64,000 nucleotides of DNA from an uncultured Gammaproteobacteria bacterium (lineage in GTDB: Bacteria; Patescibacteriota; Microgenomatia; Levybacterales; UBA12049): positions 580,174 to 644,173 of the forward strand of contig CAZAZU010000001.1 in NCBI GenBank assembly GCA_964490105.1, in the 5' to 3' direction. Shown here piece by piece: positions 35,819 to 52,797 of this stretch. A program made the position numbers and the translations under genes. The number at the start of each line of letters is the position of its first letter. Position 1 is the stretch's first letter. Below the pieces are notes generated by a model. It saw only the letters and a list, made by a program, of their open reading frames with translations. It was not told the origin of the DNA and made no database searches.

Positions 35819-35828
35819 GCCTCTTATT

Positions 35829-37871: not shown

Positions 37872-37957
37872 AGCTAAATTATTTCAAGGGGGAATAATAA
37901 AGTCAATGGGTGCACCAAATCAAACAATTATGGAATTAAAACAAAATAAATTGTAGT

Positions 37958-38485
37958 TTATGCGGAGGCTGCTGCTCTTCGCGGGAATTTAGACAAAATC
38001 GGTGAGTTTGTGTGCCTAACCATATATTCATAAAAATCAGTTCCTCGTGTGGGAATATAATTTGGTCCAGGCACAAATTCAACTTCAATACCTCTTCTTC
38101 TATTCAATTGACCTGGATTAAATAATGAAGCTAGAAATCCTATCATTTGTTCAGGTGTTTGTGCGCTGAATCTCCAACTATCTCCCTCTGGAGTAAATCC
38201 GCGAAATGTATATTTTCGTTCTTGAATACGATCAAATGAGAGTAGGGGTTCATGATGTAAATGACCACCGCGAACTACATGAACGGCACTTAACTCATTT
38301 TCATCCCCAAATTCATGACCCGAATAATGCTTAACCGTTAAATGCGCCTTACTATCTGGAATTTTTATTACAGCTGATTTCCTTCCATAGCCTTCATAAC
38401 TTCTTATCGATCTATCTGGAGAAATATTCACTAATTTACCAAGACCTAGGGAAAAATTTCTTAAAGTTCTATATTCTGCACTCAT
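37958..38485 (-). CDS. Hypothetical protein, moderately GC-enriched; His-rich motif GGHLHHEP
   Basis: 175-aa ORF with no confidently recognisable domain. Confidence 0.4.
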   Translation of the reverse strand: MSAEYRTLRNFSLGLGKLVNISPDRSIRSYEGYGRKSAVIKIPDSKAHLTVKHYSGHEFGDENELSAVHVVRGGHLHHEPLLSFDRIQERKYTFRGFTPEGDSWRFSAQTPEQMIGFLASLFNPGQLNRRRGIEVEFVPGPNYIPTRGTDFYEYMVRHTNSPILSKFPRRAAASA

Positions 38486-38517: not shown

Positions 38518-38826
38518 CTACATTCTAATTTCTATATTTACTCCCGCTGGAAGTTCGAGGTGACCCAGAGAATCCATAGTTTTTTCTGTAGGGCTGACAA
38601 TATCTATTAATCTTTTATGAACTTTAATTTCGAAATGATCTCTGGCGTCTTTATCGATGAAAGGGGATTTGTTTACAGCGTAAACTGATCTTTTAGTAGG
38701 TAAGGGAATTGGGCCCACAACTTTAGCACCGGTCCTGATGGCCGTATCTAAAATTTGCTGACAACTAGCGTCGATGACTCTAGCGTCGTAGCTCTTTAAG
38801 CGAACTCGAATTCTACCTTTTGGCAT
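38518..38826 (-). CDS. rpsJ: 30S ribosomal protein uS10
   Basis: 102 aa: RIRVRLKSYDARVIDASCQQILDTA...IKVHKRLIDI. Separated from rplC by about 3.2 kb of inserted genes. Confidence 0.9.
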   Translation of the reverse strand: MPKGRIRVRLKSYDARVIDASCQQILDTAIRTGAKVVGPIPLPTKRSVYAVNKSPFIDKDARDHFEIKVHKRLIDIVSPTEKTMDSLGHLELPAGVNIEIRM

Positions 38827-38853
38827 ATACTAAAAAATCAAAGGGCGAAGCTA

Positions 38854-40035
38854 TTATTTAATAACTTTTGTAACTACTCCTGCTCCAACTGTTTTTCCAC
38901 CTTCTCGGACTGCGAACCTAACTCCTTCTTCAAGAGCTACTGGAGCGATAAGTTTTACTGTCATTTTTGTTGAGTCTCCAGGCATAACCATTTCTACCCC
39001 TGATGGAAGAGTAGCTTCTCCTGTTACGTCTGTTGTTCTGATATAAAATTGTGGTCTGTATCCTGTGAAGAAAGGTGTGTGACGTCCTCCCTCTTCTTTT
39101 GTAAGAATATAGATTTCAGCTTCAAATTCTGTGTGCGGAGTAATAGATCCTGGCTTTGCAAGAACCTGTCCTCTTTCAACATCGTCTTTTTCAATTCCTC
39201 GAATTAATACTCCTACATTATCTCCTGCTTGACCTTCATCTAGCATCTTATGGAACATTTCTACTCCGGTTACAACTGTATTTGCTGTAGCTTTAATTCC
39301 AACGATTTCTACTGCTTCGTTTACTTTAACTACTCCTCTTTCAATTCTTCCAGTTACAACTGTTCCGCGTCCTTTAATTGAGAAAACGTCTTCAACAGGC
39401 ATAAGGAATGGCTTAGCTGTATCTCTAACTGGAGTTGGAATATCTTTATCTACTGCTTCCATTAAAGCTAATATTTGCTTTTCTGCTTCTGCGTCTCCTT
39501 CAAGAGCTTTAAGAGCTGATCCTCTTACGATTGTAACTGTGTCTCCAGGATATTCATATTTAGTAAGTAATTCTCTTACTTCCATTTCAACTAAATCTAG
39601 GAGTTCTGCGTCTTGAACCATATCTACTTTATTAAGCCATACCACAATTGAAGGTACTCCAACCTGGCGTGCTAATAGAATGTGTTCTCGTGTTTGAGGC
39701 ATAGGACCGTCTGGAGCTGAAACTACTAAGATAGCTCCGTCCATTTGTGCTGCTCCTGTAATCATGTTCTTGATGTAATCTGCGTGTCCTGGAGCGTCGA
39801 TGTGAGCATAGTGTCTGTTAGCTGTTTCGTATTCTACGTGAGTAATATTAATCGTGACTCCGCGTGCTTTTTCTTCTGGAGCATTATCAATATCCTCATA
39901 CTTCATAGCTTTTGCTCCGCCAGTCTTAGAAAGAACTGTAGCAATAGCTGCAGTAGTAGTAGTCTTACCATGGTCAACGTGACCAATAGTTCCTATGTTT
40001 ACGTGTGGTTTTGATCTGTCAAATTTATCTGCCAT
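38854..40035 (-). CDS. tuf: Elongation factor Tu
   Basis: [26 protein letters not shown]... The track ORF begins 5 codons earlier (MVFLIM); the conserved N-terminus indicates a start at 40035. Confidence 0.95.
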
Positions 40036-40039
40036 AATT

Positions 40040-40064
40040 AAAAAAACCATCAGCCATTTGATGG
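40040..40064 (-). terminator. 5'-terminal stem-loop plus U7 tract in the tuf leader (terminator-like; possible attenuator or 5' stabiliser)
   Basis: Minus strand: CCATCAaatggcTGATGG then TTTTTTT, 4 nt before the tuf ATG. No SD. Confidence 0.45.
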
Positions 40065-40071
40065 TAAAAAG

Positions 40072-40100
40072 AATATACTACACTTTTCAGAAATCGTCAA
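40072..40100 (-). promoter_or_regulatory. Sigma70-like promoter for tuf: TTGACG-17 nt-TATATT
   Basis: Minus strand: ttgacg atttctgaaaagtgtag tatatt. The predicted TSS falls at the base of the hairpin immediately upstream of tuf. Confidence 0.5.
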
Positions 40101-40117
40101 GAGGGATTTTACCAGTT

Positions 40118-40489
40118 TCAGTTCGCTGAGCCTTCGGCGATTTCATCTGACACCTGATCCCTTACTGGTCTATCCTGAGGTGTCCCTTTTGACATCACTT
40201 CATTTCTAAGTCTGAATCTCACGAAACTTAAAAGCACTAAATCAGTTCCCATGACTACGCCTCTGTTAATAATTTCATGGCCCTTACTCAAGCTATTAAT
40301 ATGATGTCTATGGCTTGCAATAGAGCTTGGATCTAGGGGATCTATGATAGGACTTTCGTGGAAAAATTGAGACGCTTCTTCATATCTCGCTCTTGCTGCT
40401 GAAAATTCTACAATACCTTGTCTTGGGGTTTGTTTTTCAATTCTTATCAAACTTCTTACTGCTAATCTTGCAGTCTCTAATCTTCCCAT
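40118..40489 (-). CDS. Hypothetical protein (Arg/Ser-rich), translationally coupled to the upstream MazG-like gene
   Basis: 123-aa ORF whose start overlaps the stop of the MazG-like gene by 1 nt. Confidence 0.4.
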   Translation of the reverse strand: MGRLETARLAVRSLIRIEKQTPRQGIVEFSAARARYEEASQFFHESPIIDPLDPSSIASHRHHINSLSKGHEIINRGVVMGTDLVLLSFVRFRLRNEVMSKGTPQDRPVRDQVSDEIAEGSAN

Positions 40490-40818
40490 TAACGTTTGGG
40501 TTCAGCCTTTCTTTTTTCTATTTTTTTAAGCGAATACATGATCGCATCATTTAAATTTATCTTTTTAATGCGAGCTAATCTGAGGATTGAAACTAAAATG
40601 TCGCCTAATTCCTGTCTATAGGTCTCATCCTCCTGAGCTGATAAATTAGTCGCTTTTCTTCCATGCTTCGCAAGATATGCTCGCGACATCTCTCCAACCT
40701 CTTCAACTATTTGGAGTATCAAAATTGAACCAAACTCTTTAGAATCTCTTACTCCCTTATCGATTCCATCTAAATATTTTATGTAGTAGCCAAACGGACT
40801 TGGCTTTCTTTTACTCAT
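40489..40818 (-). CDS. MazG-like nucleotide pyrophosphohydrolase domain protein
   Basis: 109 aa. EExGE-type motif (QIVEEVGEMSRAY) and ELGDILVSILRLA, typical of the small MazG/all-alpha NTP-PPase family. Confidence 0.55.
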   Translation of the reverse strand: MSKRKPSPFGYYIKYLDGIDKGVRDSKEFGSILILQIVEEVGEMSRAYLAKHGRKATNLSAQEDETYRQELGDILVSILRLARIKKINLNDAIMYSLKKIEKRKAEPKR

Positions 40819-40851
40819 GAGGCTATTATAACATTATGGAAGGTTAGAATT

Positions 40852-41484
40852 TTAATTGATTTCTTTGATACCGAACTCTACTTGATTATAGTAAAAACCC
40901 CATCCGTCTCCGCCTTCAGACATGGGGAATCCGCAGATCTCTTTAGTTTTTATACCCTTAAAAGCTTTTCCTCTTCTGTTGTTCCCATCAGTTACATACA
41001 TACCTGTATAGGCAAACTTATTAGACGTATTCGTTCTAACAAATGCAATCGTATTGCAATTTTTTGTAATCTTTAGATATCGGGCAGGATAATTACAGTC
41101 ATCTTGCGTAGCGGTTTTTTCTCTCCCGTTTTTCTTAACCGTAAAAGACTTTTTCGCACAATCTTCTGACCCGTCTTGATCTGCATTTTTATTTACATCT
41201 CTAAAGAGCTTTATTGCAATATATTTGTCAACAGTTACCCCTGCTGCTACCTGTTTTTTGACATTAGAAATCGCCTCATCTCTTGTGTATGAAACATCCT
41301 CATCAACTGTGGTGACACCTTTTACTTGATTGGACGAAAGTGTAACTTGATATATGGTTAACGTAGAAAGAACTATAACTCCAAAAACGACTAGTTTTGG
41401 GAAAGTGAATAGTTTTTCTAAAAAGGATTTCTTAGCAGCTCGTCGTGCCGGCCTTTTTCGGGATTTGGACAGTTTTTTTGGCAT
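40852..41484 (-). CDS. Secreted/membrane-anchored Cys-containing protein, paralog A
   Basis: 210 aa. Basic N-terminus plus TM anchor; extracytoplasmic domain with 4 Cys. Shares SEDC..AFV..TG.Y.TD..FGIKE blocks with the next gene. Confidence 0.45.
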   Translation of the reverse strand: MPKKLSKSRKRPARRAAKKSFLEKLFTFPKLVVFGVIVLSTLTIYQVTLSSNQVKGVTTVDEDVSYTRDEAISNVKKQVAAGVTVDKYIAIKLFRDVNKNADQDGSEDCAKKSFTVKKNGREKTATQDDCNYPARYLKITKNCNTIAFVRTNTSNKFAYTGMYVTDGNNRRGKAFKGIKTKEICGFPMSEGGDGWGFYYNQVEFGIKEIN

Positions 41485-41539
41485 CTATTCCAGTGAACAC
41501 TATAAACGTATGTTTTGTCAATTAGTTTTTTAGAGGTAT

Positions 41540-42043
41540 TTACTGTTTTTTAACTCCGAAGTCGATTACTGTGTAGTATGAGTCAACTGAAAATTTTCCT
41601 GTTACTTCCTGTGAATGTCTTCCGTTAAGTCTTACTTCTCCTTCATGAGTCTTATCAGTAAAATTATATCCTGTAAAAATAAAGCCGTCCACCTTTTTTA
41701 ATTTTATTGTTACAGTTCTTGCTTTTGTGACAAATGCAACGTCTTCTGTGCAACCCCAAATACTTCTTTCAAATTTAGTACCGTTTGGTCTTGTAAACTC
41801 ATAAGTAACATTTCTATTTAAACAATCCTCAGCACTGCCTCGTCTGCCATTCATGTTTGGATCTTTAAAGACTGAAAGTAAATGATATGTTGGCGGAGTA
41901 TCACCGCTAATTCTAGTTATATTTGAAATTTCTGACCTCTGAACAAAAGACTCATCCACATATTGAGCCGAAGCATTTTGAGGAGCTACAACTACAAAAG
42001 CTAACAACATTCCAACCAATAAAGCCCTTAATTTTAATTTCAT
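41540..42043 (-). CDS. Secreted Cys-containing protein, paralog B
   Basis: Signal peptide MKLKLRALLVGMLLAFVVVAPQNASA (start chosen at this Met). Blocks AEDC..VAFV..FTGYNFTD..DFGVKK match paralog A. Confidence 0.45.
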   Translation of the reverse strand: MKLKLRALLVGMLLAFVVVAPQNASAQYVDESFVQRSEISNITRISGDTPPTYHLLSVFKDPNMNGRRGSAEDCLNRNVTYEFTRPNGTKFERSIWGCTEDVAFVTKARTVTIKLKKVDGFIFTGYNFTDKTHEGEVRLNGRHSQEVTGKFSVDSYYTVIDFGVKKQ

Positions 42044-42131
42044 GCTTGCAAGATACCAATAATGCTTCAATTTGTCAAATATTAAGCACATTTTGATTGA
42101 CTTTTAAGTCACCTATTGTTACGATACTTCA

Positions 42132-42674
42132 GTGAATCAAGCACGAATTTTAATAGTTGAGGACGAAGAATACTTAAGGGAACTTTATCAGGAAGTTCTT
42201 TCTGATCAAGGATATTTTGTAGATACTGCAGAAAACGGAAATGAAGGGCTTGCAAAAATTCAGCAAGGCGGATGGGATCTTGTAATGCTAGATATCATAC
42301 TTCCTGGAATTGATGGAATCTCAATAATGAGACAGATAAAAGCTTCCCCGGCAAAACTTCCAAATAAAAAAATAATATTTTTAACTAATTTAGATAAAGA
42401 TAAAGAAATGCAGGAAGGGCTCTCTTTGGGAGATGGATATTTTATTAAAAGCCAAATTACCCCTGGTAATCTAGTGGATCAAATAAAAGCTTACATAAAT
42501 ATTGAACAGACTCCAAATCATAATGCCCCTCAGGTTCAGCAAAATCAAACTCCACCTGCAAGTCCACCCACTCAAGCTGCACCTATTCAATCAGCTCCAC
42601 CTCAGCAAACACCTAGTCAACCAATAGCTCAAACACCTGCGCCTGCAAACCCTAGCCAAACCAAGCCTCAGTGA
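42132..42674 (+). CDS. Single-domain response regulator (CheY-like receiver) with Pro/Gln-rich C-terminal tail
   Basis: 180 aa, GTG start. Receiver motifs ILIVEDEE...DLVMLDIILPGIDG...; about 55-aa PQ-rich low-complexity tail; no DNA-binding domain. Confidence 0.7.
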   Translation: MNQARILIVEDEEYLRELYQEVLSDQGYFVDTAENGNEGLAKIQQGGWDLVMLDIILPGIDGISIMRQIKASPAKLPNKKIIFLTNLDKDKEMQEGLSLGDGYFIKSQITPGNLVDQIKAYINIEQTPNHNAPQVQQNQTPPASPPTQAAPIQSAPPQQTPSQPIAQTPAPANPSQTKPQ

Positions 42675-44071
42675 GTTAAAAATGGAATTGTAAAATTGAA
42701 TGTGGCTCCTTTTCCTTCACCTAATGATTCAGCCCACATCTTCCCTCCGTGCATTTCTACGAGAAGTTTTGAAAGATAAAGTCCAAGTCCTGTACCCTGT
42801 GCTTCTTGTTTGTGTAGATAACTTTCTCCCATAGTCCCGAACTTTCTGAAAAGCTTTTCCATATCTTCCTTATTCATTCCTCGCCCAGTGTCAACTACAG
42901 TAACAAGTAAATTCTTATCTTCAGGCTTTATCGATACATTAATAGAGCCTCCAGACGGAGTAAATTTAAGTGAATTCCCCACAAGATTAATGATAACTTG
43001 CTCAATTCTTTCATGATCAGCATTTACCAAAGGCACTGGGTAATTGGGCTTTGCAAATGCGAGCTTCAAGCCAAGCTGCTGTGCTCGAGGGATTAACTCT
43101 TCGACCTGTTTTTCTAAAATATCAACAATTTGAACTGGTTTTAACTCAAGCGATAGTCTTCCGGACTCAATTCTAGAGACATTTAACATATCATTTACAA
43201 GATTTATCAGTCTTTCAGTTGACGAATAAGCACGTGTTAAATAACTCATTTCTTTTTCGGTGAGCTGCCCTTTTTTCTTATCCATAAATAGCCACAAATA
43301 AGATTTAATAATGGTCATTGGGGTTCGGAGTTCATGAGAAGCCAGAGAAACGAATTCGTCTTTTAACTTGTCAAGTTGCTTCAATCTTTCATTAGCTTCC
43401 TGAATCGATCGGTAAAGAAGTGAGTTATCAAGAGCAATTCCTACAACTCCTGCCATTCGATCAATTAAAGCTTTTTTCTCTAGTGTTATTGCAGATTCTT
43501 CTTCTGTGATTCCAATAACCAACGTCCCAATCACATCAAGCCTAACTATAAGCGGATAAACAATTATAGATTTTACTTCCATTTCCTCTTGCGCTTCTTT
43601 AGATTCTTCATCTGAAATGTTTGAACCAAATATATCCTGAAGACTTTTTACAATCTGAACTTTCTTTGTCAGTAAAGTTTTTACTAGAACATTATCTTTT
43701 TCAGATAAAGCAATTGAAAGTTTTAAAAATTTATTTTTCCCGATATCGTTTATTGCTTCACTTTTTGCAAACGATGAAATGGCGATTGGAATTATTAATT
43801 TTTCTTCCTGCTTAACAATACAGATACTTACAAATCTAAATTCTTCCTCAACTAAAAGATCAGACACCTGCTGTGCGATTTGATTTGGGTCTGTAACCGT
43901 TGAGAGAACTACCTCATCTATATGCCTAAGAAGAGCAAGGGTCTTATTTCTGTCATTTAAATCCTGATTCTTCTTGTACATCTCCTGCATGATGTGCTCT
44001 ATGCCAGTTACGGCAGATACTGCTACAGGGTCTGTCACAGAATTTATCGGATCTTTTTGGGGCAGGTCCAT
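42668..44071 (-). CDS. Soluble sensor histidine kinase (GAF-like sensor + HisKA + HATPase_c), no TM segments
   Basis: 467 aa. H-box SHELRTPMT, N-box LVGNSLKFT, G-boxes DTGRGM and GTGLGLYLSK. Convergent with the RR gene and overlapping it by 7 nt. Confidence 0.8.
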   Translation of the reverse strand: MDLPQKDPINSVTDPVAVSAVTGIEHIMQEMYKKNQDLNDRNKTLALLRHIDEVVLSTVTDPNQIAQQVSDLLVEEEFRFVSICIVKQEEKLIIPIAISSFAKSEAINDIGKNKFLKLSIALSEKDNVLVKTLLTKKVQIVKSLQDIFGSNISDEESKEAQEEMEVKSIIVYPLIVRLDVIGTLVIGITEEESAITLEKKALIDRMAGVVGIALDNSLLYRSIQEANERLKQLDKLKDEFVSLASHELRTPMTIIKSYLWLFMDKKKGQLTEKEMSYLTRAYSSTERLINLVNDMLNVSRIESGRLSLELKPVQIVDILEKQVEELIPRAQQLGLKLAFAKPNYPVPLVNADHERIEQVIINLVGNSLKFTPSGGSINVSIKPEDKNLLVTVVDTGRGMNKEDMEKLFRKFGTMGESYLHKQEAQGTGLGLYLSKLLVEMHGGKMWAESLGEGKGATFNFTIPFLTH

Positions 44072-44093
44072 TTGTTAATTATAAGTTGAATGC

Positions 44094-44366
44094 TTATTTG
44101 AGTAAAGCGGGGAGACTGTCTGCAGGAACAGAAAGACCTTTTATAGCATCTTTACAGACTTCTACAGACGTTTGGCCAAATAAATTCTGATATTGCTTCA
44201 CCAGATTATCGATAATTGCCTTTTCGTCCCCTCCTAAAGCCACTTCATGATTTTGCCAATCTATTTTAAGGCCTGGCACTTTTTTTGCTTGTTCCAATGC
44301 CACTGGTCCAATAATAGACTCTTGCTCTTTTATTATCCTTTGAGCCATCTGAGCAAAAATATCCAT
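44094..44366 (-). CDS. Hypothetical small protein co-operonic with the histidine kinase
   Basis: 90-aa ORF sitting 22 nt upstream of the HK start. Confidence 0.4.
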   Translation of the reverse strand: MDIFAQMAQRIIKEQESIIGPVALEQAKKVPGLKIDWQNHEVALGGDEKAIIDNLVKQYQNLFGQTSVEVCKDAIKGLSVPADSLPALLK

Positions 44367-44375
44367 AAGCTTAAA

Positions 44376-45191
44376 CTATGTCCTAAGTTTTTTTAAAACG
44401 TCTCCTAACTGAAGGAGTCCCAATGTCATCAGTGAATATGAAGCGAGATACAAGTAATCATTTAATCCGCCAGCATACCAAGTTTCCCTACTTGCTTGAA
44501 ATAAAAACGTATAATCAGCTAAGAACTGAACCATTAGAGCGATCACTATAAAAAATATTTTACTTCTCATAACTCCTCCTAGTAAATTTCTAGAAAGAAA
44601 GTAAGTTAAAAGAGCAAATGATATATAAATCGCTTGACCAAGCGGATAACCAAAATCTAATAGTGTTCTTAGGGGTGCCGACATATCTATCTTATGACCT
44701 TGAACGAATAAAAAGTATCCTGCGAGAACCATTCCTAAAGGTATTAAAACCGCGGCTATTTTATTTTCAAATCCTTTGAGTCCGATTTTCAAACCCGAAG
44801 CTTTTCCAAGCAAATACGCGCCGTAAATATAAAGCGGAATACTTCCAAAGTAACCTAAATCCCCTAATGAAGGGTATGGAACTTCGATCTTGAGAAAATA
44901 AATATAGAAAGAATACATTAGCTGACCAAATTCTTGCGCTAGAAGTCCTAGTGAAAACATAAGAATTGAACGGCCAAAAAGGCTTTTGAAAAATCCCCAT
45001 TTTCTTGAAATTAAAATTCCCCACACTCCTCCCCATATAGCCATTAATCCATATGAAGCTGCGAATATTTGATGCTGGAGAGTATCAGTTGTTGTACTTG
45101 AGGACTGAATATATATCCACCAAAGAGTGAAGAAAACAAATATGGCAATCGCTATTTTATTTTGCCATTGATTACTATTAGCTTCTGGCAT
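44376..45191 (-). CDS. Polytopic membrane protein (about 7-8 TM), hypothetical; upstream of the small-protein/HK genes
   Basis: 271 aa, hydrophobic throughout; possible membrane input partner of the soluble HK. Confidence 0.45.
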   Translation of the reverse strand: MPEANSNQWQNKIAIAIFVFFTLWWIYIQSSSTTTDTLQHQIFAASYGLMAIWGGVWGILISRKWGFFKSLFGRSILMFSLGLLAQEFGQLMYSFYIYFLKIEVPYPSLGDLGYFGSIPLYIYGAYLLGKASGLKIGLKGFENKIAAVLIPLGMVLAGYFLFVQGHKIDMSAPLRTLLDFGYPLGQAIYISFALLTYFLSRNLLGGVMRSKIFFIVIALMVQFLADYTFLFQASRETWYAGGLNDYLYLASYSLMTLGLLQLGDVLKKLRT

Positions 45192-45252
45192 ATAATCAGC
45201 TTAAACCTAAAGATAAATAAATGTCAACTTATCTAACTTCCGCTACTTAACG

Positions 45253-46164: not shown

Positions 46165-47072
46165 CTTTTGTAGATCAGAAAGAGGCCGGCGATCATTAAA
46201 AGCATCAAGATTCCATTTCGCAGTTTATTTTCCCCTGCTGCATCCCTAAGATATTTTGGGAAAAATGGAAAAAATAAAACCGCAAATAAAAGTACATAAA
46301 TCGGCTGAATTCCTTCAATAACTTTTACAATTGACACTGGTCCCTTACTTATTGCTAAGTTACCAACAAATTCTGCAGAAATTCCCAATAGCTCAACAAA
46401 TGAAAAAACCAATATCCATTTTTTAAAAGTTTTCTTGAATTCTTTTCCGAATTCTCTTCCTTTTTTTGTAGATAATACTAAAAATAATGCTCCCAGTCCC
46501 ATTCCCATTGAAAAAAGCATATATCCTGTCCAAAAATCTACTTCTGTATAAACATATTTTCCTATCACAGAGATCACTGCGAAAATAAAGGCACCAATTC
46601 CGACCAGTATAAATGCCGGGGAGAATTTAAATTTCTTAATATCTGTCACAGAAATGGCAAGAGAGGAAAAAAGAATAATTCCAAAACCTAAATACTGATT
46701 TAGAGTTAAAACCTCTTTCAGGAAAAAATACGCTAAGAATGGAATTAGAGCTGGAGCAAGACTAAATAATGAAATAACTACTGAAGGTTTTTCTACCTCA
46801 AGTCCTCTGAAGTAGAAGTAATAATACATAACCGTAAGAAATCCTGCTAATAATCCTAATCCTGCGACTAAAGGAGAGGGGACTGAAATATCTACAAAAA
46901 ATAAAGCGGTAAGAGGAAGCAATCCAAAAATTCCAGAAATTATTGCTCCAAAATGTGCGGAGCGATAAACATTTCTAAGTAAATTATCATCAATAATATT
47001 TATTAAAGCAAAAAGGGCAGGAGTAAGAAGAGCTAGTAAAAACCATTGCTCCGTAATCATAATTAGGTCCAA
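46161..47072 (-). CDS. EamA-like (DMT superfamily) transporter
   Basis: 303 aa, about 10 TM, with the two-repeat architecture of EamA. Overlaps the pdaD start. Confidence 0.6.
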   Translation of the reverse strand: MDLIMITEQWFLLALLTPALFALINIIDDNLLRNVYRSAHFGAIISGIFGLLPLTALFFVDISVPSPLVAGLGLLAGFLTVMYYYFYFRGLEVEKPSVVISLFSLAPALIPFLAYFFLKEVLTLNQYLGFGIILFSSLAISVTDIKKFKFSPAFILVGIGAFIFAVISVIGKYVYTEVDFWTGYMLFSMGMGLGALFLVLSTKKGREFGKEFKKTFKKWILVFSFVELLGISAEFVGNLAISKGPVSIVKVIEGIQPIYVLLFAVLFFPFFPKYLRDAAGENKLRNGILMLLMIAGLFLIYKS

Positions 47073-47554
47073 TCTTCGGACTTATATGCAGCAATTACTA
47101 CAACTGACGCCGGTAAATCCTTGACCTGAGCTGTTTTAATTTTAATTCCTAATTTATCTTCATCAAATTCCAAATCTCTATTTTTACATAAATCCATTAT
47201 GGATCTTTTTACTTCTTCTCGTAAATCTGCCTCTACCGAACTTTCAACCTCTCCTGTTTCTTCATGCTCTACGAAAACTCCCCGTCCATCTTCTAACTGA
47301 TACCAACCAAGTGCTGCCCCAATAAATCTCCCTGAATCTCTACTTCTCATTTCGGCTTTTACACAATAAAGCTTATTCCCCCATTCATTATCATTTACGG
47401 GCATTTTCTCATGAATAACTGTCGTCATTGGAGGAATAACAGATGAAAGAGTAATAAGATTAAAATTCATTACTCCTGCATCCATAAGTGCACCATCAAA
47501 TGCAGATAAAGGTGTTTTCCCGAAGCCTACGCCAGTTGTAATATAAATTTTCAT
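47063..47554 (-). CDS. pdaD: Pyruvoyl-dependent arginine decarboxylase (archaeal PdaD type)
   Basis: 163 aa: GVGFGKTPLSAFDGALMDAGVMNFNLITLSSVIPP matches PdaD NAFDxALLxAGIGNVNLIxxSSIxPP, with the Ser-Ser self-cleavage site. Confidence 0.7.
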   Translation of the reverse strand: MKIYITTGVGFGKTPLSAFDGALMDAGVMNFNLITLSSVIPPMTTVIHEKMPVNDNEWGNKLYCVKAEMRSRDSGRFIGAALGWYQLEDGRGVFVEHEETGEVESSVEADLREEVKRSIMDLCKNRDLEFDEDKLGIKIKTAQVKDLPASVVVIAAYKSEDWT

Positions 47555-47638
47555 AACCTAATCAGTATATAAGGAAATATTAAAAAAATTCAAGCCTCAT
47601 AGTTTCCTATAGGGGTTAATTGATTCAATCTAGGGTAA

Positions 47639-49774
47639 TTATTCAACTCTTCCCGTGAAGGTGGAGGCGGCTTTCATTTGAGCCTGAATGTTTTGTGGAA
47701 CTTCATCATAGTGCGAAGGCTCCATGTAATACGAAGCTCTTCCCTGAGTCATAGACCTTAAGATCGTAGCGTATCCTGATAATTCTGAGAGAGGAACCAT
47801 AGCGTTAATGATTGTCGCTTTTCCTCGATCTTCACTTCCGGAAATCTGTGCTCTTTTACTAGACAAATCTCCAATTACATCTCCTAAAAATTCTGATGGA
47901 GTTGTAACTTCTACCTTCATAATAGGCTCTAAAAGTGTAAGTTTTGCATTTTGAGCTGCTATTTGAAGGGCTTTTGAAGCTGCAATTTTGAATGCGATTT
48001 CTGAAGAGTCCACGTCATGGAAAGATCCATCATAAACTTCTACACTCATATCTACCACAGGGTATCCTAAGTAAATTCCGTTTTCCTCAGACTCGATTAC
48101 TCCTTTTTGAATAGCTTTTATAAACTCTGCAGGAATTGCTCCTCCCTTAATACTATCTATAAATTCATTTCCCTCTCCTCTTGGTTTTGGCTTGATTCTT
48201 AAGAAACAGTGTCCGTACTGTCCGCGTCCTCCAGACTGACGAATATATTTTCCTTCTCCTGTTGCTTCTTCTTTAATTGTTTCTTTATAAGCTACCTGAG
48301 GAGCTCCTACATTAGCTTCAACTCCAAAGTCTGATTTCATAGTATTAACTTTAACCTCAAGCTGAAGCTCTCCAACCCCTGAGATAATAGTCTGATTTGT
48401 TTCATGATTTGTTTTAACCTGGAAAGTTGGATCTTCGTCCATAAGGCGCTTTAATGCTATGCCGAGCTTCTCCTGATCTGATTTAGTCTTTGGTTCAATT
48501 GCTAAAGAAATAACAGGTTCTGGGAAAGTAATTTTTTCTAAAACTATTGGATTTGCTTCATCACAAAGTGTATCTCCTGTGATGGTTTCTTTAAGTCCTA
48601 CAATTGCGACGATTTCTCCTGCATACGCCTCGTCAATTTCTTCTCTTTGATTTGAATGCATAAGAAGAAGACGGCCAACGCGCTCTGTATTATCTTTTGT
48701 AGAGTTATAAATATAACTTCCAGATTTAATTTTTCCAGAATAAACTCTATAAAAAGTTAATTTTCCAACGTGAGGATCATTTTGAATTTTAAAAGCAAGC
48801 CCTGCAAGAGGAGCATCTGCTACTAGCTGGCGGGTTTCTTCTGCATCAGTTTTAGGATTTATTCCTTTTACTTCTTTAAGATCTACTGGGGATGGCAGAT
48901 ATTCAACAACAGCGTCAAGAAGTGGCTGTACTCCTTTGTTTCGAAGAGAAGTACCTGCATAAATTGGAACTAATTTATATGCGATAACTGCGCGTCTCAA
49001 TGCCGCTCTTAGTTCTTCAACACTTGGCTCTGTTCCATTTAAGTATTTATCTAGTAATGCGTCATCTGTTTCTGAAATTTTTTCAATAAGTTTATGTCTA
49101 TACTCATCAACTGCCACTTTCATTTCCTCTGGAATATCATCATTTACTTCGTATTTTGCTCCTAATTCATCTCCGCCCCATCTGATTGCTTTGCGGGTTA
49201 AAAGGTCAACGTTTCCTACATAAGTTTGCTCACTTCCAATTGGAAGAACCATGATTGCGGTATTTGCTCCAAGCCTGTCTTCAATAGATTTAACAGTAGC
49301 TAAAAAATCCGCTCCTAGTTTATCCATTTTGTTGATGAAACAAATTCTAGGAACCTTATATTTATCAGCTTGTCTCCAAACTGTTTCTGACTGGGATTGA
49401 ACTCCCTCTTCTGCGTCAAGAACTGTAATTCCTCCGTCCAAAACTCTTAGAGAGCGCTCTACTTCAGCTGTAAAGTCTACGTGACCTGGAGTATCAATAA
49501 TGTTAAATCTGTGCTCTATGCCCTTTTGTGAGCCTTCAGTTGGGGTCCAGAATGCAGTAGTAGCAGCACTTACAATGGTAATTCCGCGCTCTCTTTCTTC
49601 CTTCATCCAGTCCATGACTGTATTTCCCTCATCGATATCTCCGATTTTGTGAGTTTTTCCAGTGTAGTAAAGAATGCGCTCTGTAGTGGTCGTTTTTCCC
49701 GCATCAATATGCGCGATAATTCCGATGTTTCGGATCTTTTCTAAATCAAAATGTCTATTAGATGAATCAGCCAT
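47639..49774 (-). CDS. fusA: Elongation factor G
   Basis: 711 aa: NIGIIAHIDAGKTTTTERIL... with the full EF-G domain set. Confidence 0.95.
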   Translation of the reverse strand: MADSSNRHFDLEKIRNIGIIAHIDAGKTTTTERILYYTGKTHKIGDIDEGNTVMDWMKEERERGITIVSAATTAFWTPTEGSQKGIEHRFNIIDTPGHVDFTAEVERSLRVLDGGITVLDAEEGVQSQSETVWRQADKYKVPRICFINKMDKLGADFLATVKSIEDRLGANTAIMVLPIGSEQTYVGNVDLLTRKAIRWGGDELGAKYEVNDDIPEEMKVAVDEYRHKLIEKISETDDALLDKYLNGTEPSVEELRAALRRAVIAYKLVPIYAGTSLRNKGVQPLLDAVVEYLPSPVDLKEVKGINPKTDAEETRQLVADAPLAGLAFKIQNDPHVGKLTFYRVYSGKIKSGSYIYNSTKDNTERVGRLLLMHSNQREEIDEAYAGEIVAIVGLKETITGDTLCDEANPIVLEKITFPEPVISLAIEPKTKSDQEKLGIALKRLMDEDPTFQVKTNHETNQTIISGVGELQLEVKVNTMKSDFGVEANVGAPQVAYKETIKEEATGEGKYIRQSGGRGQYGHCFLRIKPKPRGEGNEFIDSIKGGAIPAEFIKAIQKGVIESEENGIYLGYPVVDMSVEVYDGSFHDVDSSEIAFKIAASKALQIAAQNAKLTLLEPIMKVEVTTPSEFLGDVIGDLSSKRAQISGSEDRGKATIINAMVPLSELSGYATILRSMTQGRASYYMEPSHYDEVPQNIQAQMKAASTFTGRVE

Positions 49775-49791
49775 AAATTAAATAAAACTTT

Positions 49792-49830
49792 AAAAAAGCT
49801 CCCACAAATGGAAGCTAAATGAGTATACCA
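49792..49830 (-). promoter_or_regulatory. Extended -10 promoter (TGgTATACT) plus 5'-terminal stem-loop and U6 leader for fusA
   Basis: Minus strand: tgtggTATACTcatttaGCTTCCAtttgTGGGAGC TTTTTT aaagttttatttaat ATG. The hairpin has one mismatch. No SD. Confidence 0.45.
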
Positions 49831-49847
49831 CAAAATCTTTTTAGAAT

Positions 49848-50399
49848 CTATAGAATTGTTCCGAATTTTTTGTTTTTCTTTGTATTCTTTATAAATGAAT
49901 TTAAGCGTCTTTCGTAATCTTCCATTCTTTTTTGCTTTTTAGCATCCTCTATGTAATAAATCCTAAGTCTTTTATAGAGATCGTCAAAGGCTTGATAGTT
50001 CTTCCAGACTTCCGGATCTGTCTTTAATGCTTTTTCTGTTTCAGGAGACAATATGACTGGTTTTTCAGAAAGATCCACTCCTACTAGTGCCTCTATTCCA
50101 TATGGAGTCATAAGCTTTGATTTAATCAAACGTCTTGCTCGTTCTTTATTTAGCTCTGACCAATTTGACTTAGCTCTTCTTGGTGTAAATCGCTGAATAG
50201 TTGAATCCTGATCCCGTTTTTTAACCACCCCGTCTATCCATCCAAAACACAACGCTTCTTCAACTGCCTCATTATAAGGAAGTGAAAGCTTTCCTGATGC
50301 CTTTTTATAGAAGACAAACCATACTTCTTTTTCCTTATTGTGGTTTTTCTCAAGCCACTCTCGCCACTCTTTTCTATCCTTTGCATAAAAACTATTCAT
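49848..50399 (-). CDS. YdeI/OmpD-associated (OmdA) family protein
   Basis: 183 aa: EAVEEALCFGWIDGVVKKRD, a family signature. Confidence 0.55.
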   Translation of the reverse strand: MNSFYAKDRKEWREWLEKNHNKEKEVWFVFYKKASGKLSLPYNEAVEEALCFGWIDGVVKKRDQDSTIQRFTPRRAKSNWSELNKERARRLIKSKLMTPYGIEALVGVDLSEKPVILSPETEKALKTDPEVWKNYQAFDDLYKRLRIYYIEDAKKQKRMEDYERRLNSFIKNTKKNKKFGTIL

Positions 50400-50467
50400 A
50401 AACTAATTATATTACTTTTCCTGGAATCAAAACTGCACGATACATCGATATATCGATATATGATGCA

Positions 50468-51379
50468 TTAAGAGGGTTTTTCTGAAGTTTTCGGCCCATC
50501 TACAAATATCATGTCTACGAAATTATCAACTAACCCTCTTACCAGTTCTCCCCAAAGCTCTAATCTAATTCTCCAAAGCTCTTTTCCTCCATCCAAAAGT
50601 CTTGCAGGTATATGCTCACCCACCAAATCCTTGGGCGATCTTGATGCTACTGAAGAATACACACCTTTTTCTATAATCGCATCTATTCCCTTAGTCATTG
50701 CTAAATCTACGCTTGTTTCAGCGATACCCAAAACTTTTCCTCTTACATCAAGAAGCTTTGCCAAATGCGCATCAACTTTTCCTCTATACTCTCCTTTTCC
50801 CTGGACGCTAGATAGTTGAATCGGAAGCTTCTTTTCCCTGCGGCTATAAGGAGGAATTCCAGATCTTCCTGGATGAACCCTTGTAGTTATACCAACCAAA
50901 GTAGTTTTATTTTTAGGATAACCTTTATACTTTCTCCACCAATCTTTCCCCTCAACTCCATCAATGTGAATATCTCTAGATGAGATTAAATCACCAAGTC
51001 TTTCACCTTTTATTTGCTGTCCTGGTATATAAAGCCTACCAAGCTCAATTCCTGCGTCTATTTGTATCGGCCTAGGTGCATAATTTCTAACTGGCGCTTG
51101 AACCTCAAATCCATAGTTTAATTCCCCCTCTGCGATCCCTTGAGCATCTACCTGCTCTCCTATTTTTAATGCAGCACCTTCTTGAAAAGCAAAATGCATT
51201 TGAGCATTTCTACTTCTAGCAGACTCTTCTACTCCTGCAAAATCTACTTTTCTAGTACCGGGAACATTACCCGATGAAATTAGAACTTTTGCATATCCAT
51301 ACTCAAAAGCAGGAATCTCGACTCCTTTCACAACTATTAAACCTGCTCCTCGCCAAGCTTGCATTTCTACCTCTGCCAT
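50468..51379 (-). CDS. Hypothetical protein, GC-enriched and of atypical composition
   Basis: 303-aa ORF, rich in G, V, A and R, with no recognisable motif. Confidence 0.4.
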   Translation of the reverse strand: MAEVEMQAWRGAGLIVVKGVEIPAFEYGYAKVLISSGNVPGTRKVDFAGVEESARSRNAQMHFAFQEGAALKIGEQVDAQGIAEGELNYGFEVQAPVRNYAPRPIQIDAGIELGRLYIPGQQIKGERLGDLISSRDIHIDGVEGKDWWRKYKGYPKNKTTLVGITTRVHPGRSGIPPYSRREKKLPIQLSSVQGKGEYRGKVDAHLAKLLDVRGKVLGIAETSVDLAMTKGIDAIIEKGVYSSVASRSPKDLVGEHIPARLLDGGKELWRIRLELWGELVRGLVDNFVDMIFVDGPKTSEKPS

Positions 51380-51417
51380 AGATGGGGAATTATATTCTAA
51401 AGGGGATTAAACTTCAA

Positions 51418-51846
51418 CTATAGGTTATGTTGTAGGTCGTTTTTTTGGGGTAGAGAAGTTACAGTAACCTTTAAGCCGGGTTTTTCTCCTTCTACTGCCT
51501 GTTGAGTTAGCGCAAACCCTTCCCTAGCAACAATTGCTAAATGTGCTGATTCCACTCCAGTTCTTAGTTCTGATTCTTGTCCAGTTAAAGATACACGGGG
51601 TGATACGCGGATAAATCTACCTAATTCTGTTCCAGATAGAATTTGGGCTATTGGTCCTAAATGAGAATCGACAGCATCTGATAATAGATGTGAATATAAC
51701 TCTGTTCTATGGCCAATTCCCTCTTTTATTCTTTGCTCTATTAAAGACAAAGCCATTAGCTCTCTTTCGATTAATTCAACATTATCAATTGGAAGATTAA
51801 CTTCTACAACAGGTCTGCCTGGTTTTGGCTCAACATCTCTAGTCAT
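51418..51846 (-). CDS. Hypothetical protein, GC-enriched; immediately upstream of the 303-aa gene
   Basis: 142-aa ORF. Its stop lies 5 nt from the rpsG stop side. Confidence 0.35.
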   Translation of the reverse strand: MTRDVEPKPGRPVVEVNLPIDNVELIERELMALSLIEQRIKEGIGHRTELYSHLLSDAVDSHLGPIAQILSGTELGRFIRVSPRVSLTGQESELRTGVESAHLAIVAREGFALTQQAVEGEKPGLKVTVTSLPQKNDLQHNL

Positions 51847-51851
51847 GGAAG

Positions 51852-52325
51852 TTAAATGCGGAAGTGGGAGAAAGCTTTGTTTGCGTCAGCCATTCTATGA
51901 ACATTATCTCTTTTCTTGATTGCCTCTCCTTGATTTGCTGCTGCGTCCATTATTTCTGCTGCTAATTTTTCTGCAAATGAATGATAATCTTTATTTGATT
52001 TAGAACGAGCTGCATCCACTATCCATCGAAGTGCTAGTGCTGTTCTTCTATCTCCTCTAACTTCGATCGGGATTTGATAACTTGCTCCTCCAACGCGTCT
52101 AGCTTTAATTTCTGTTTTTGGACCGATATTTTGTACTGCTTTTTCAAATAATGAAAGTGCGTCTTCTTTTTTTGCAAGAATTTCCATCATGTCATAAACA
52201 ATTCCTTGTGCAATTGATTTCTTGCCGTCTTTCATTATGTAATTAGCAAGTTTTGCTACCAAAAGATTGTTGTAAACTGCATCTCCCTCAATATGTCTTT
52301 TTTTACTTGCGTGTGCGTGTCTCAT
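51852..52325 (-). CDS. rpsG: 30S ribosomal protein uS7
   Basis: 157 aa: NNLLVAKLANYIMKDGKKSIAQGIVYD. Confidence 0.9.
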   Translation of the reverse strand: MRHAHASKKRHIEGDAVYNNLLVAKLANYIMKDGKKSIAQGIVYDMMEILAKKEDALSLFEKAVQNIGPKTEIKARRVGGASYQIPIEVRGDRRTALALRWIVDAARSKSNKDYHSFAEKLAAEIMDAAANQGEAIKKRDNVHRMADANKAFSHFRI

Positions 52326-52332
52326 AATTTAA

Positions 52333-52797
52333 TTAAGCTGCTGGAGCTTCAGCTGCCGGTGCTGCTGCTTTTGGCGCAGGTGCACCTTTTGATCCTCTCT
52401 TTGCTCCATATTTACTTCTTGAACTTTGCCTACCTACTACTCCAGCTAAATCTAATTTTCCTCGAACGATGTGATATTTTACTCCAGCTAAATCTTTTAC
52501 ACGTCCGCCTCTGACTAAAACAATTCCGTGTTCAGCTAAAGAATGACCTTCTCCCATGATATAAGCTGTAACTTCAGTTCTATTTGATAATTTTACTCTA
52601 GCTACTTTTCGAAGAGCCGAATTAGGTTTTCTAGGAGTCATAGTTTTAACTAAAGTTACAACTCCTCTTTTTTGAGGTGAATTAACTTCAGTGTAAACTC
52701 TGTCCTTAGCATTATAAAGTTTTCTAAGTCCAGTAACCCTGACCTTTTTCATTCTTCTTTGTCTACCGTGCTTTGTAAGTTGTGATAGTGTTGGCAT
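52333..52797 (-). CDS. rpsL: 30S ribosomal protein uS12 with Ala/Pro-rich C-terminal extension
   Basis: 154 aa: [12 protein letters not shown]...[16 protein letters not shown], plus a tail [18 protein letters not shown]. Confidence 0.9.

Follow-up and report, generated by a model that had tools for sequence, protein, structure and literature searches.

The question raised by this locus is how a conserved cluster of transcription and translation genes came to be split at three places, and whether its pieces are expressed on their own. In the window, the 64,000-nucleotide stretch of DNA analysed here, ORF calls and Pfam searches give the minus-strand order rpoB-rpoC-rpsL-rpsG, three genes, fusA, eleven genes, tuf-rpsJ, four genes, and then rplC through rplQ. 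The first module is opened by rpoB (56596-60027, 1143 aa), whose end is overlapped by rpoC (52812-56603, 1263 aa); their orthologs in the relative L083 carry RNA_pol_Rpb2 and RNA_pol_Rpb1 domains, respectively, and rpoB orthologs in relatives are 52-78% identical by tblastn. rpsL (S12, 52333-52797; Pfam Ribosom_S12_S23, E=3e-31) lies 14 bp downstream of rpoC and is followed by the rpsG ORF (S7, 51852-52325), whose ortholog in L083 and L085 is PF00177 Ribosomal_S7. The second module is fusA (EF-G, 47639-49774, 711 aa), with orthologs of 63-96% identity in 80 genomes and its nearest loci in Levybacteria MAGs; the window is accordingly assigned to a Levybacteria genome (Microgenomates, Patescibacteria/CPR). 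The third consists of tuf (38854-40037) and rpsJ (38518-38826), whose orthologs carry GTP_EFTU and Ribosomal_S10; since EF-Tu of the relatives is 393-394 aa long, the true start of tuf is probably the ATG at 40035. The fourth module begins with rplC (34373-35263, Pfam Ribosomal_L3, an L3 with an acidic C-terminal extension) and appears uninterrupted, with tightly packed ORFs, down to rplQ at 20005; L5, SecY, IF-1, RpoA and L17 were confirmed downstream of rplC. A previous sequence-only reading had counted three, thirteen and four genes in the gaps. The first and last counts are borne out, and the fusA-tuf gap also exists, but it holds eleven genes and its intergenic space leaves no room for more. 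The range considered then (38518-52797) stops at rpsJ and therefore omits the third interruption, which ends at 34373.

The first interruption (49848-51846, minus strand) contains a 142-aa orphan (51418-51846) only 5 bp after rpsG, a 303-aa orphan with a DCD/dUTPase fold (50468-51379) and an OmdA/YdeI-like gene (49848-50399). The second (40118-47554, mixed strands) comprises PvlArgDC (47063-47554), EamA (46161-47072), LPG_synthase_C (45253-46164, plus strand), a 271-aa membrane protein (44376-45191), a 90-aa ORF (44094-44366), a histidine kinase (42668-44071) and response regulator (42132-42674, plus strand), ORFs of 183 aa (41540-42091) and 210 aa (40852-41484), MazG (40489-40818) and a 123-aa ORF (40118-40489). 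The third (35519-38485, mixed strands) holds a 175-aa orphan (37958-38485) that starts 32 nt after rpsJ, a 111-aa DUF6487-like gene (37536-37871), a PMT_2 glycosyltransferase (35829-37433) and a 99-aa ORF on the plus strand (35519-35818).

The source is a metagenome-assembled contig of 785 kb, and misjoins are possible in MAGs, in which case the real genome would be contiguous and the breaks chimeric. However, each of the six junctions is found again in independent MAGs and in assemblies from other samples and projects (L001/L087, L083, L085, L088, L089, L090 and L081). The order rpsG-orphan-OmdA-fusA is found in L001, L083 and L085, and fusA...MazG-tuf in L001/L087, L088, L089 and L090. The series rpsJ-175-111-PMT-99, with identical proteins, is present in Logan SRR8863434 and ENA ERZ27284375 (L081, L082), and the block on the rpsJ side runs continuously through to rplC in L087, L088 and L089. 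Composition is likewise uniform over the junctions. This recurrence effectively refutes an assembly or binning artefact, the misassembly entertained earlier, to which we assign next to no probability.

The three blocks might then be integrative or transposable elements that target the str/S10 cluster and carry horizontally acquired cargo. The two-component system, MazG, the glycosyltransferase and the orphans are of an accessory type, and at the same anchor genes other Levybacteria carry a wholly different cargo from that of the window clade. Between the window and L001 the genes flanking the 303-aa gene are 94-96% identical but the 303-aa gene itself only 32%, which suggests its replacement by a distant homolog. 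However, a domain search of the inserted ORFs returned no integrase, transposase or recombinase, the region and the junctions lack tRNA genes, and no significant direct or inverted repeats bracket any of the three blocks. All the inserted ORFs look native, with GC and GC3 (0.19-0.32) like those of the core genes. The blocks are inherited vertically within the clade with small stepwise changes, and an older cargo (GH18, PIG-L, cyclophilin) is kept in many species. Mobile islands are in our judgement improbable, and the proposed hotspot for island insertion finds no support in the mobile-element sense.

The age of the breaks can be read from the relatives, for which we compiled a gap table of 80 species, one genome each, covering up to 10 kb on either side of fusA; loci with a fusA at least 72% identical made up the Levybacteria set. 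rpsG and fusA lie between 571 bp and >10 kb apart in 25 of 25 informative Levybacteria loci, with the qualification that in at least 15 species rpsG is >10 kb from fusA and the sequence after it thus falls outside the view. The distance from fusA to tuf is 1.4 to >10 kb in all 22 informative loci. tuf and rpsJ are adjacent, with a gap of 24-107 bp, in 18 of the 19 Levybacteria loci where both were found, and rpsJ and rplC (119-289 bp) in 13 of 14. The whole cluster is contiguous in the outgroup L043 and largely contiguous in the outgroup L038; fusA and tuf are still adjacent in Gottesman-like loci, as are rpsG and fusA in Roizmanbacteria. Because they are split in all sampled informative Levybacteria and contiguous in some other Microgenomates, the rpsG|fusA and fusA|tuf breaks are old; gene order indicates that they predate the diversification of Levybacteria and that their gene content has since turned over. 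The earlier suggestion that a conserved cluster was rearranged in one particular lineage is thereby supported, but the arrangement is not 'highly unusual': within Levybacteria the split state is the rule.

In most Levybacteria species PIG-L, PEMT and GH18 genes precede tuf (GH18 immediately upstream of it in 17 loci, PIG-L in 10 and an opposite-strand PEMT-like gene in 8), and in several species an opposite-strand cyclophilin precedes fusA (six rpsG|fusA gaps). The window clade differs, its cargo being common only to L001 and the clade around it. The block of the second interruption is also present in L001/L087, L083, L088, L089 and L090, and more distant Levybacteria showed no counterparts of its genes in their gaps. 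The slot between rpsJ and rplC holds one gene in L090/L091, three in L088/L089 and four in the window and L087, the 175-aa gene being the constant first gene in all eight clade members. As judged from this series, the rpsJ|rplC break is recent, confined to the genus-level clade of the window, and has grown stepwise.

Promoter-like sites followed by a stem-loop and a U-tract had been noted upstream of fusA, tuf, rplC and rpoB, and both elements are present at all four genes, again on the minus strand. The fusA leader (49775-49830) has an extended -10 TGgTATACT (49830-49822), a hairpin (49816-49797) and a U-rich tail before the ATG at 49774, and that of tuf (40038-40100) has TTGACG (40100-40095), a spacing of 17, TATATT (40077-40072), a hairpin (40065-40046) and U7 before the ATG at 40035; both lack a Shine-Dalgarno sequence. 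At rplC (35264-35423), TTGCAT (35423-35418) and TATAAT (35400-35395) are spaced by 17 and followed by a hairpin (35315-35292) with a U-tract, the ATG being at 35263. The site before rpoB (60070-60149) combines TTGACA (60149-60144), a spacing of 18 and TGaTATAAG (60128-60120) with a hairpin (60085-60070) and U-tract. Hairpin energies are -9.8, -7.8, -9.9 and -5.6 kcal/mol for fusA, tuf, rplC and rpoB, with single-sequence folding z-scores of -2.4, -3.06, -1.8 and +0.5, so that the rpoB hairpin on its own is indistinguishable from chance; a hairpin with T7-8 also occurs upstream of rpoB in L002, L006, L020 and L022.

Single-sequence promoter matches carry no weight, since the 71 promoter-like sites of the region do not exceed what shuffles yield (58 +/- 10). 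Conservation is a different matter. TGnTATACT is found upstream of fusA in 21 of 28 Levybacteria loci, against ~0.005 expected per 138-nt window of sequence, and TTGAC[GC]-N16-18-TAWNWT upstream of tuf in 18 of 20, against ~0.004. The fusA hairpin usually begins 5-9 nt past the -10 box in the loci scored, and the tuf hairpin 6 nt past it in the window and 4-9 nt in nearly all loci. Strong intergenic hairpins with a T-tract occur in the 64 kb only before rpoB, fusA, tuf, rplC and infA, apart from two weaker cases. We take this as good indirect evidence that fusA, tuf-rpsJ and rplC are independent transcription units, whose start sites and boundaries we infer from these elements.

This much of the earlier proposal, that the fragments became units of their own, holds; the order of events it implied for rplC, displacement first and a promoter afterwards, does not. 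The rplC promoter and leader are nearly identical (~100%) in L087, L088 and L090 up to a point just before the -35 box, where similarity breaks down, and a homologous promoter and terminal hairpin are found in Levybacteria in which rpsJ and rplC are still adjacent. Because of the latter, promoter and leader are, on this comparison, older than the insertion.

The hairpins and U-tracts have the canonical form of terminators, and they could simply terminate the inserted genes upstream, with fusA, tuf and rplC served mainly by read-through or by chance promoters nearby. At fusA, tuf, rpoB and infA the hairpin does lie downstream of a co-directional gene, and loci with adjacent rpsG and fusA (e.g. 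L043) have no hairpin upstream of fusA, so that the hairpin tracks the upstream foreign genes. A plain terminator would, however, be expected upstream of the promoter, whereas the order is consistently promoter, hairpin, ATG, with the hairpin 4-9 nt past a highly conserved -10 box. The gene before the rplC hairpin of the window is divergently oriented, which leaves this hairpin without a co-directional gene to terminate; it also remained with rplC when insertions parted rpsJ from rplC, and its stem sequence is conserved between species. Terminator-like hairpins are nearly absent from the other gene 3' ends of the window. Plain terminators are a possibility to be kept in mind, though a doubtful one.

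We prefer to see the hairpin as a 5'-terminal stabilizer and the U-tract as an SD-independent ribosome-loading site, so that a core module would begin with a promoter, a hairpin at about +1, a U-rich tract and an ATG without Shine-Dalgarno sequence. Together, hairpin and U-tract would also block read-through from inserted genes upstream. Since they should terminate their own transcripts when placed after the promoter, this stabilizer-insulator reading needs termination to be leaky or conditional. Stem-loops at the 5' terminus are known to stabilize mRNAs, as in the ompA type of E. coli, and decay in Firmicutes depends on RNase J/Y; an RNase Y is encoded in the genome studied here. As with ompA-type stabilizers, the hairpins are predicted to start at +1 to +3 of the transcripts of highly expressed genes; unlike these, and at start sites that are here predictions only, they run directly into a U-tract, as canonical terminators do, and an ATG without Shine-Dalgarno sequence comes next.

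The rplC leader, ~130 nt long and ending in its hairpin and U-tract, can in addition adopt an alternative long-range fold (z=-3.25) that is predicted to compete with the terminator hairpin, and it looks like a regulated attenuator. Terminator-type hairpins in 5' leaders of ribosomal protein and RNA polymerase operons are also found in the E. coli S10 leader, with its L4-mediated attenuation, and in the rplL-rpoB attenuator. Unlike the S10 leader, the element here precedes rplC and not rpsJ, and binding of L4 or L3 is only hypothetical. The leader elements have no Rfam match; the ribosomal protein leaders of E. coli have a narrow distribution (Fu et al. 2013, PMC3616713).

The 3' ends of the modules seem to lack clean insulation. 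No strong terminator-like element follows rpsG or rpsJ, the hairpin at the rpsJ stop having only 5 bp and -3.1 kcal/mol, and given the close spacing the 142-aa and 175-aa ORFs are therefore probably co-transcribed with the ribosomal genes. This tight placement, the constant first position of the 175-aa gene and the location of 303-aa homologs after rpsG in the contexts examined would also suit selected co-expression, in which these three ORFs were recruited as factors of translation or nucleotide metabolism. However, both families are narrow-clade or fast-evolving (59-89% and 32-70% identity), L001 and L083 lack the 142-aa gene, and the 303-aa gene has a strong promoter of its own and a fold that points to a dCTP-deaminase/dUTPase-like enzyme and not to a ribosome factor. 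We find such recruitment unlikely, if somewhat less so than mobile islands. Many of the inserted genes seem to have come with promoters of their own. In 15 of 76 genes, seven of them inserted, the -10 box stands 6-9 nt from the ATG, a leaderless-type spacing that suggests leaderless mRNAs.

We propose that the rpoBC-str-S10 supercluster would work as a set of four modules, [rpoB-rpoC-rpsL-rpsG], [fusA], [tuf-rpsJ] and [rplC...rplQ]. Since each begins with its own promoter, the DNA between modules would lie outside any transcription unit, so that unrelated genes could be gained, exchanged or lost there while the essential genes remained coupled. The rpsJ|rplC slot may have begun with the single 175-aa gene added to rpsJ and grown by additions directly upstream of the existing rplC promoter.

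In several phyla tuf adjoins secE-nusG, and cyanobacteria and plastids have rps12-rps7-fus-tufA-rps10, where S10 no longer joins the rplC cluster. As in such lineages with unlinked tuf or rpsJ, fusA|tuf and rpsJ|rplC can be broken and tuf-rpsJ can travel together; unlike there, fusA stands apart from both neighbours, the gaps hold variable cargo and the modules of the window clade stay co-oriented within ~26 kb. The break-up is nevertheless an ordinary process at unusual positions. In the invasion-separation model of operon-cluster break-up most separation events trace to gene insertions and long-distance horizontal transfer is unneeded (Brandis 2021, PMC8046335). Concatenated transcription units are first invaded by a few unrelated genes, and related genomes then have them fully separated (>10 kb); the loci compared here include examples of either stage. 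The sites invaded in Gammaproteobacteria and Bacilli are boundaries of the classical operons (rpoBC|str, str|S10), whereas in Levybacteria, a CPR lineage, they are rpsG|fusA, fusA|tuf and rpsJ|rplC, all intra-operonic in E. coli. The Levybacteria split is, unlike that of Gammaproteobacteria and Bacilli, fixed across a class- or phylum-level group. Of the by-products of this analysis the conserved leader modules are the most interesting; the split itself is probably a lineage-wide, inherited condition of a cluster run as separately promoted modules.

ORF calling combined with Pfam and NCBIfam scans bore out the gene order of the sequence-only reading, with the genes of interest on the minus strand. 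rpoB (56596-60027) and rpoC (52812-56603) are followed by rpsL (52333-52797), which starts 14 bp past rpoC, and by rpsG (51852-52325). Three genes spanning 2.0 kb, encoding two orphans (142 and 303 aa) and an OmdA/YdeI-like protein, then separate rpsG from fusA (47639-49774). Between fusA and tuf we count 11 genes (7.6 kb), and not 13 as first thought, 2 of the 11 being on the opposite strand: a pyruvoyl arginine decarboxylase, an EamA transporter, an LPG_synthase_C-domain protein (plus strand), a 271-aa membrane protein, a 90-aa ORF, a GAF-histidine kinase, a response regulator (plus strand), secreted-looking proteins of 183 and 210 aa, MazG and a 123-aa orphan. rpsJ (38518-38826) lies 27 bp past tuf (38854-40037, the long ORF of which begins 5 codons too early) and is parted from rplC (34373-35263) by four genes (3.25 kb) for a 175-aa orphan, a 111-aa zinc-ribbon/DUF6487-like protein, a PMT_2 glycosyltransferase and a 99-aa ORF on the plus strand. 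All three proposed interruptions are present, the third one beyond the segment in which they had been placed. rplC heads a tightly packed S10-spc-alpha cluster that runs to rplQ and in which L5, SecY, IF-1, RpoA and L17 were confirmed. The window thus departs from the canonical str operon, neither rpsG/fusA nor fusA/tuf being neighbours, and from the canonical S10 operon, rpsJ and rplC lying apart with a promoter and leader ahead of rplC. rpsL, rpsG, fusA and tuf retain the minus strand and their canonical relative order.

Several of the ribosomal proteins carry low-complexity extensions: L3 (rplC, 34373-35263; 296 aa) has an acidic Glu/Lys-rich C-terminal tail of ~90 aa, L4 (rplD, 33595-34386; 263 aa) a Lys/Ala-rich N-terminal extension and S12 (rpsL, 52333-52797) an Ala/Pro-rich C-terminal tail. 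rplJ-rplL are absent ahead of rpoB (60178-61863), so that the rplKAJL|rpoBC link also appears broken. Their place is taken by a small Zincin_1-like gene (60178-60528) and a divergent metK (60757-61863, plus strand) with a SAM-I/IV riboswitch (60669-60787), an arrangement also present in the independent assembly L083.

The EF-G of the window has its nearest relatives in Levybacteria MAGs, and each junction was found again in independent assemblies. The rpsG-(orphan)-OmdA-fusA junctions recur in the fusA-bearing loci L001, L083 and L085, and the entire block from fusA through MazG to tuf in L001/L087, L088, L089 and L090. The order rpsJ-175-111-PMT-99 was found with identical proteins in the Logan assembly of SRR8863434 and in ENA ERZ27284375, and the rpsJ|rplC block extends through to rplC in L087, L088 and L089. 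Base composition is uniform, with no step in the GC profile. We therefore reject an assembly artefact, one of the options that had been left standing; as a practical warning, misassembly should not be concluded from broken str/S10 synteny in Microgenomates.

Core-gene spacing was measured in 80 species-representative genomes, Levybacteria being defined by an EF-G identity of at least 72%. The rpsG-fusA distance ranged from 571 bp to >10 kb in 25/25 informative Levybacteria loci, and the fusA-tuf distance from 1.4 to >10 kb in 22/22. The split state, earlier called highly unusual, is accordingly the norm in this lineage, and the proposal of a lineage-specific rearrangement is supported across the 80 genomes. 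In at least 15 Levybacteria species rpsG lies >10 kb from fusA. Adjacency was observed for tuf-rpsJ in 18 of the 19 Levybacteria loci with both genes found, and for rpsJ-rplC in 13 of 14. tuf is >10 kb from fusA in L026, L028 and the Roizmanbacteria, which keep rpsG-fusA together; Gottesman-like genomes keep fusA-tuf together, with rpsG-fusA 2-9 kb apart. The full contiguous ancestral order is found in one Gottesmanbacteria genome (L043), and the outgroup L038 is largely contiguous. We also observed that the fusA match spans 2.5-3.1 kb, not 2.1 kb, in Gottesman-like and some other Microgenomates (L029, L032, L034, L037-L039, L042, L043, L045, L046, L063, L069, L072, L078 and L079). The main tblastn segment stops early in these loci, a pattern that suggests an insertion close to the 3′ part of the gene, possibly an additional domain or an intein.

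The rpsG|fusA and fusA|tuf breaks are old, a view supported by their gap content. A GH18 gene immediately ahead of tuf is common to 17 species, a PIG-L deacetylase to 10 and an opposite-strand PEMT-like methyltransferase to 8, and an opposite-strand cyclophilin occupies the rpsG|fusA gap in six. In most Levybacteria, at least 15 species (L003, L008, L009, L011-L019, L021, L023 and L024) fusA adjoins a conserved divergent block upstream, consisting of a PilO-like gene, a second gene of ~200 aa with no Pfam match, a small gene of 100-120 aa, a Big_13/purple-acid-phosphatase-N surface protein, a flavin amine oxidase and PMT_2-type glycosyltransferases; this implies that fusA was relocated as a single-gene module. 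Across the genomes compared the gaps hold 1-12 genes. The window's cargo is shared only with L001 and its relatives, and the window's clade has replaced all of the older cargo (GH18, PIG-L, PEMT-like and cyclophilin).

Promoter matches had been offered as a sign that the displaced genes form independent transcription units. A consensus scan returned 71 sites versus 58 ± 10 in shuffled sequence, so that such matches are uninformative alone, and we turned to conservation statistics instead. Although the matches by themselves are not evidence, the fusA and tuf promoters proved to be conserved: an extended -10 TGnTATACT occurs upstream of fusA in 21/28 Levybacteria loci (background ~0.005 per equivalent window) and TTGAC[GC]-N16-18-TAWNWT upstream of tuf in 18/20 (background ~0.004). 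fusA, tuf and rplC each have a conserved promoter on their 5′ side, and together with the leaders these promoters support the notion of independent units. In 19 of the 21 scored tuf leaders, that of the window included, a predicted hairpin starts 4-9 nt past the -10 hexamer. Nearly all promoter-bearing fusA and tuf loci have a hairpin at this distance of 4-9 nt, then 5-8 consecutive T and, 3-30 nt on, an ATG lacking a Shine-Dalgarno sequence. The sequence of the hairpin varies between species while its position is fixed; Gottesman-like genomes with adjacent fusA-tuf have AGGAGG and no hairpin. Judged from single sequences, hairpin stability reaches modest significance for tuf (z=-3.1) and for fusA (z=-2.4), and no significance for rpoB. 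The infA leader (23287-23356, minus strand) has the same layout as those of fusA and tuf, with an extended -10 TGaTATAAT, a hairpin AACCTCA...TGAGGTT, a U-rich tract and an ATG without Shine-Dalgarno sequence.

The history of the rpsJ|rplC break can be followed through the 175-aa orphan (37958-38485, minus strand), which lies 32 nt past rpsJ and is always the first gene after it. Its homologs are confined to close relatives, in eight protein clusters. They have invariant His/Asp/Glu positions (H75, H77, H78, D102 and others), and the AF2 model (pLDDT 53.8) was too poor for fold search or classification. The contexts are rpsJ-175-rplC in L090/L091, rpsJ-174-PMT_2-102(-)-rplC in L088/L089, rpsJ-175-111-PMT_2-99(-)-rplC in the window and rpsJ-177-145-183-PMT_2-rplC in L087; they form a series in which a young break grows by 1, 3, then 4 genes. 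In a DNA alignment with L087 (11333-11510), L088 (12545-12757) and L090 (9490-9706), the rplC promoter and its ~130-nt leader (35423-35264, minus strand) are almost 100% identical, with neighbouring proteins only 67-82% identical in the same genomes. Similarity falls away directly upstream of the rplC -35, which places the entry of new genes exactly at the upstream edge of the existing promoter. A homologous promoter (TTGAAT/TTGCAT...ATGCCCAAA...TATAAT) and terminal hairpin (GGTAGCC-N4-GGCTATC, then T8) also occur in Levybacteria with rpsJ-rplC still adjacent; the rplC transcription unit is thus older than the insertion.

The rplC leader is more elaborate than the others. In a predicted competing fold (z=-3.25), the terminator hairpin has its loop and 3′ arm paired with a segment further upstream, which is the layout of an attenuator. 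The leader further contains a perfect Shine-Dalgarno-like AGGAGGTGAT with no start codon behind it, and what may be a mini-ORF of 11 codons. Rfam holds no family that fits the leaders, and no ribosomal protein leader was hit even at E<=5; unlike the E. coli-type S10 (L4) leader, that of rplC matches no curated covariance model. It is a candidate for a new ribosomal protein leader or attenuator. The stem of its terminal hairpin is conserved in sequence with one compensatory pair only, so that covariation neither supports nor refutes the structure.

The elements ahead of fusA, tuf, rplC, rpoB and infA all have the intrinsic-terminator-like form of a stem-loop directly followed by a U-tract, and could on that ground simply terminate transcription of the upstream gene. 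We consider this, the main alternative reading, rather unlikely, because in tuf and fusA the hairpin is separated from the preceding stop codon by a conserved promoter, the gene upstream of the rplC hairpin is divergent, and strong intergenic hairpin+T elements, rare in the 64-kb window, sit ahead of these five genes and are not generic 3′-end terminators. Instead we infer, with about an even chance of being right, that the hairpin would serve as a 5′-terminal stabiliser of the mRNA, and the U-rich region as a site of Shine-Dalgarno-independent ribosome loading that would also halt read-through from upstream cargo. Of relevance to the idea of a 5′ stabiliser, an RNase Y homolog with RNase_Y_N, KH and HD domains is encoded at 13894-15150 (minus strand) and indicates mRNA decay machinery of the Firmicute type. 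More speculatively, the module may be an undescribed, lineage-wide device of Levybacteria and related Microgenomates, combining a promoter-proximal attenuator with translation initiation and coordinating genes of the translation apparatus after the loss of operon linkage and Shine-Dalgarno coupling. It has a simple form ahead of fusA, tuf, infA and rpoB and an elaborated one, with the antiterminator-like alternative fold, ahead of rplC. We think such a device quite improbable; if real, it would have made the fragmentation of str/S10 tolerable.

Across the window, a TATAAT-like -10 hexamer lies 6-9 nt ahead of the ATG in 15/76 genes, versus ~0-1 per other offset. These genes, with the stretch upstream of the ATG in parentheses, include MazG (40819-40830), the histidine kinase (44072-44083), OmdA (50400-50411), the 303-aa ORF (51380-51394), the 99-aa ORF (35501-35518, plus strand), PvlArgDC and the 111-aa ORF. 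The sharp positional peak suggests leaderless transcripts, which may be common in this organism, and the inserted genes among them look autonomous. A Shine-Dalgarno-like core precedes the start in only 23/76 genes, mostly operon-internal. The first genes past rpsG (5 bp) and past rpsJ (32 nt) have neither a promoter nor a strong terminator in front, and for this reason are probably co-transcribed with the ribosomal genes.

The inserted content varies at the same anchors, differing between clades and changing stepwise within a clade, as might be expected of a genomic island or insertion hotspot, the other option of the sequence-only reading. The hallmarks of mobility were not found in the window. 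No integrase, recombinase or transposase domain was detected by Pfam in all 18 inserted ORFs or by NCBIfam and PADLOC in the 10 without a confident Pfam assignment. Searches for flanking direct (att) or terminal inverted repeats gave just short, chance-level repeats, none bracketing a block. No tRNA or tmRNA lies at the junctions, the sole tRNA of the window being at 16942-17013, and composition is not atypical (GC3 0.19-0.32 in the inserted ORFs versus 0.15-0.34 in core genes). A mobile element or genomic island is therefore rejected, as is a defence island, PADLOC giving 0 matches for the 10 unassigned ORFs. Nor are the orphans structured RNAs posing as ORFs: Rfam returned just the tRNA and the SAM-I/IV riboswitch elsewhere, and all orphans have coding-type GC1>GC2>GC3 and protein homologs, which marks them as real genes.

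The 303-aa orphan is a member of an uncharacterised family, comprising 7 clusters in a word-indexed search and 228 clusters at 50% identity in a profile search of 1.8 billion representatives. Pfam matched 0/43 of its members, and the family profile weakly matches dUTPase motif III (E=0.05). Its homologs lie directly past rpsG in the three contexts examined (L001, L083 and L085). The protein of the window is 32% identical to that of L001 amid flanking genes at 94-96%, a pattern suggesting that the gene was exchanged for a distant homolog while its position stayed fixed. We also noted a 34-nt near-perfect palindrome, TGCACGATACATCGATATATCGATATATGATGCA (50434-50467), in the 68 bp that part the 303-aa ORF from the OmdA-like gene; it may act as an operator or form a bidirectional structure.

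The best-supported explanation of these data is that the str/S10 region of Levybacteria would be a string of separately promoted modules, the DNA between them tolerating the gain, loss and replacement of genes. In the invasion-separation process, a small invasion is followed by relaxed linkage and then by full separation (Brandis 2021, PMC8046335). Like the cases described there, the present one has few unrelated genes between once-adjacent units, with contiguous outgroups, and the same pair fully disconnected (>10 kb) in relatives, and the 80 genomes between them show every stage. We see in it a further case of an evolutionary process already known, set in a poorly studied phylum and at unusual positions, and it extends the picture past Proteobacteria and Firmicutes. 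Of the earlier proposals, the lineage-specific rearrangement with independent transcription units is the one that has held. In the literature, as far as coverage went, we came across no account of these leaders, or of a fragmented str/S10 cluster, in CPR, a weak sign of novelty.

Few prokaryotic gene arrangements are as conserved as the rpoBC-str-S10-spc-alpha cluster, which serves as a syntenic marker block in MAG phylogenomics and quality control. Here its 5′ half is seen to be stably taken apart throughout an entire CPR lineage, at sites that are intra-operonic in model bacteria, and the comparison yields a time series, with cargo turnover at the old breaks and stepwise growth of the young one. 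The conserved leader modules and the apparently leaderless genes provide concrete, testable hypotheses on transcription and translation signals in organisms that, to our knowledge, have next to no experimental record, and are the part of this work that deserves experimental follow-up.
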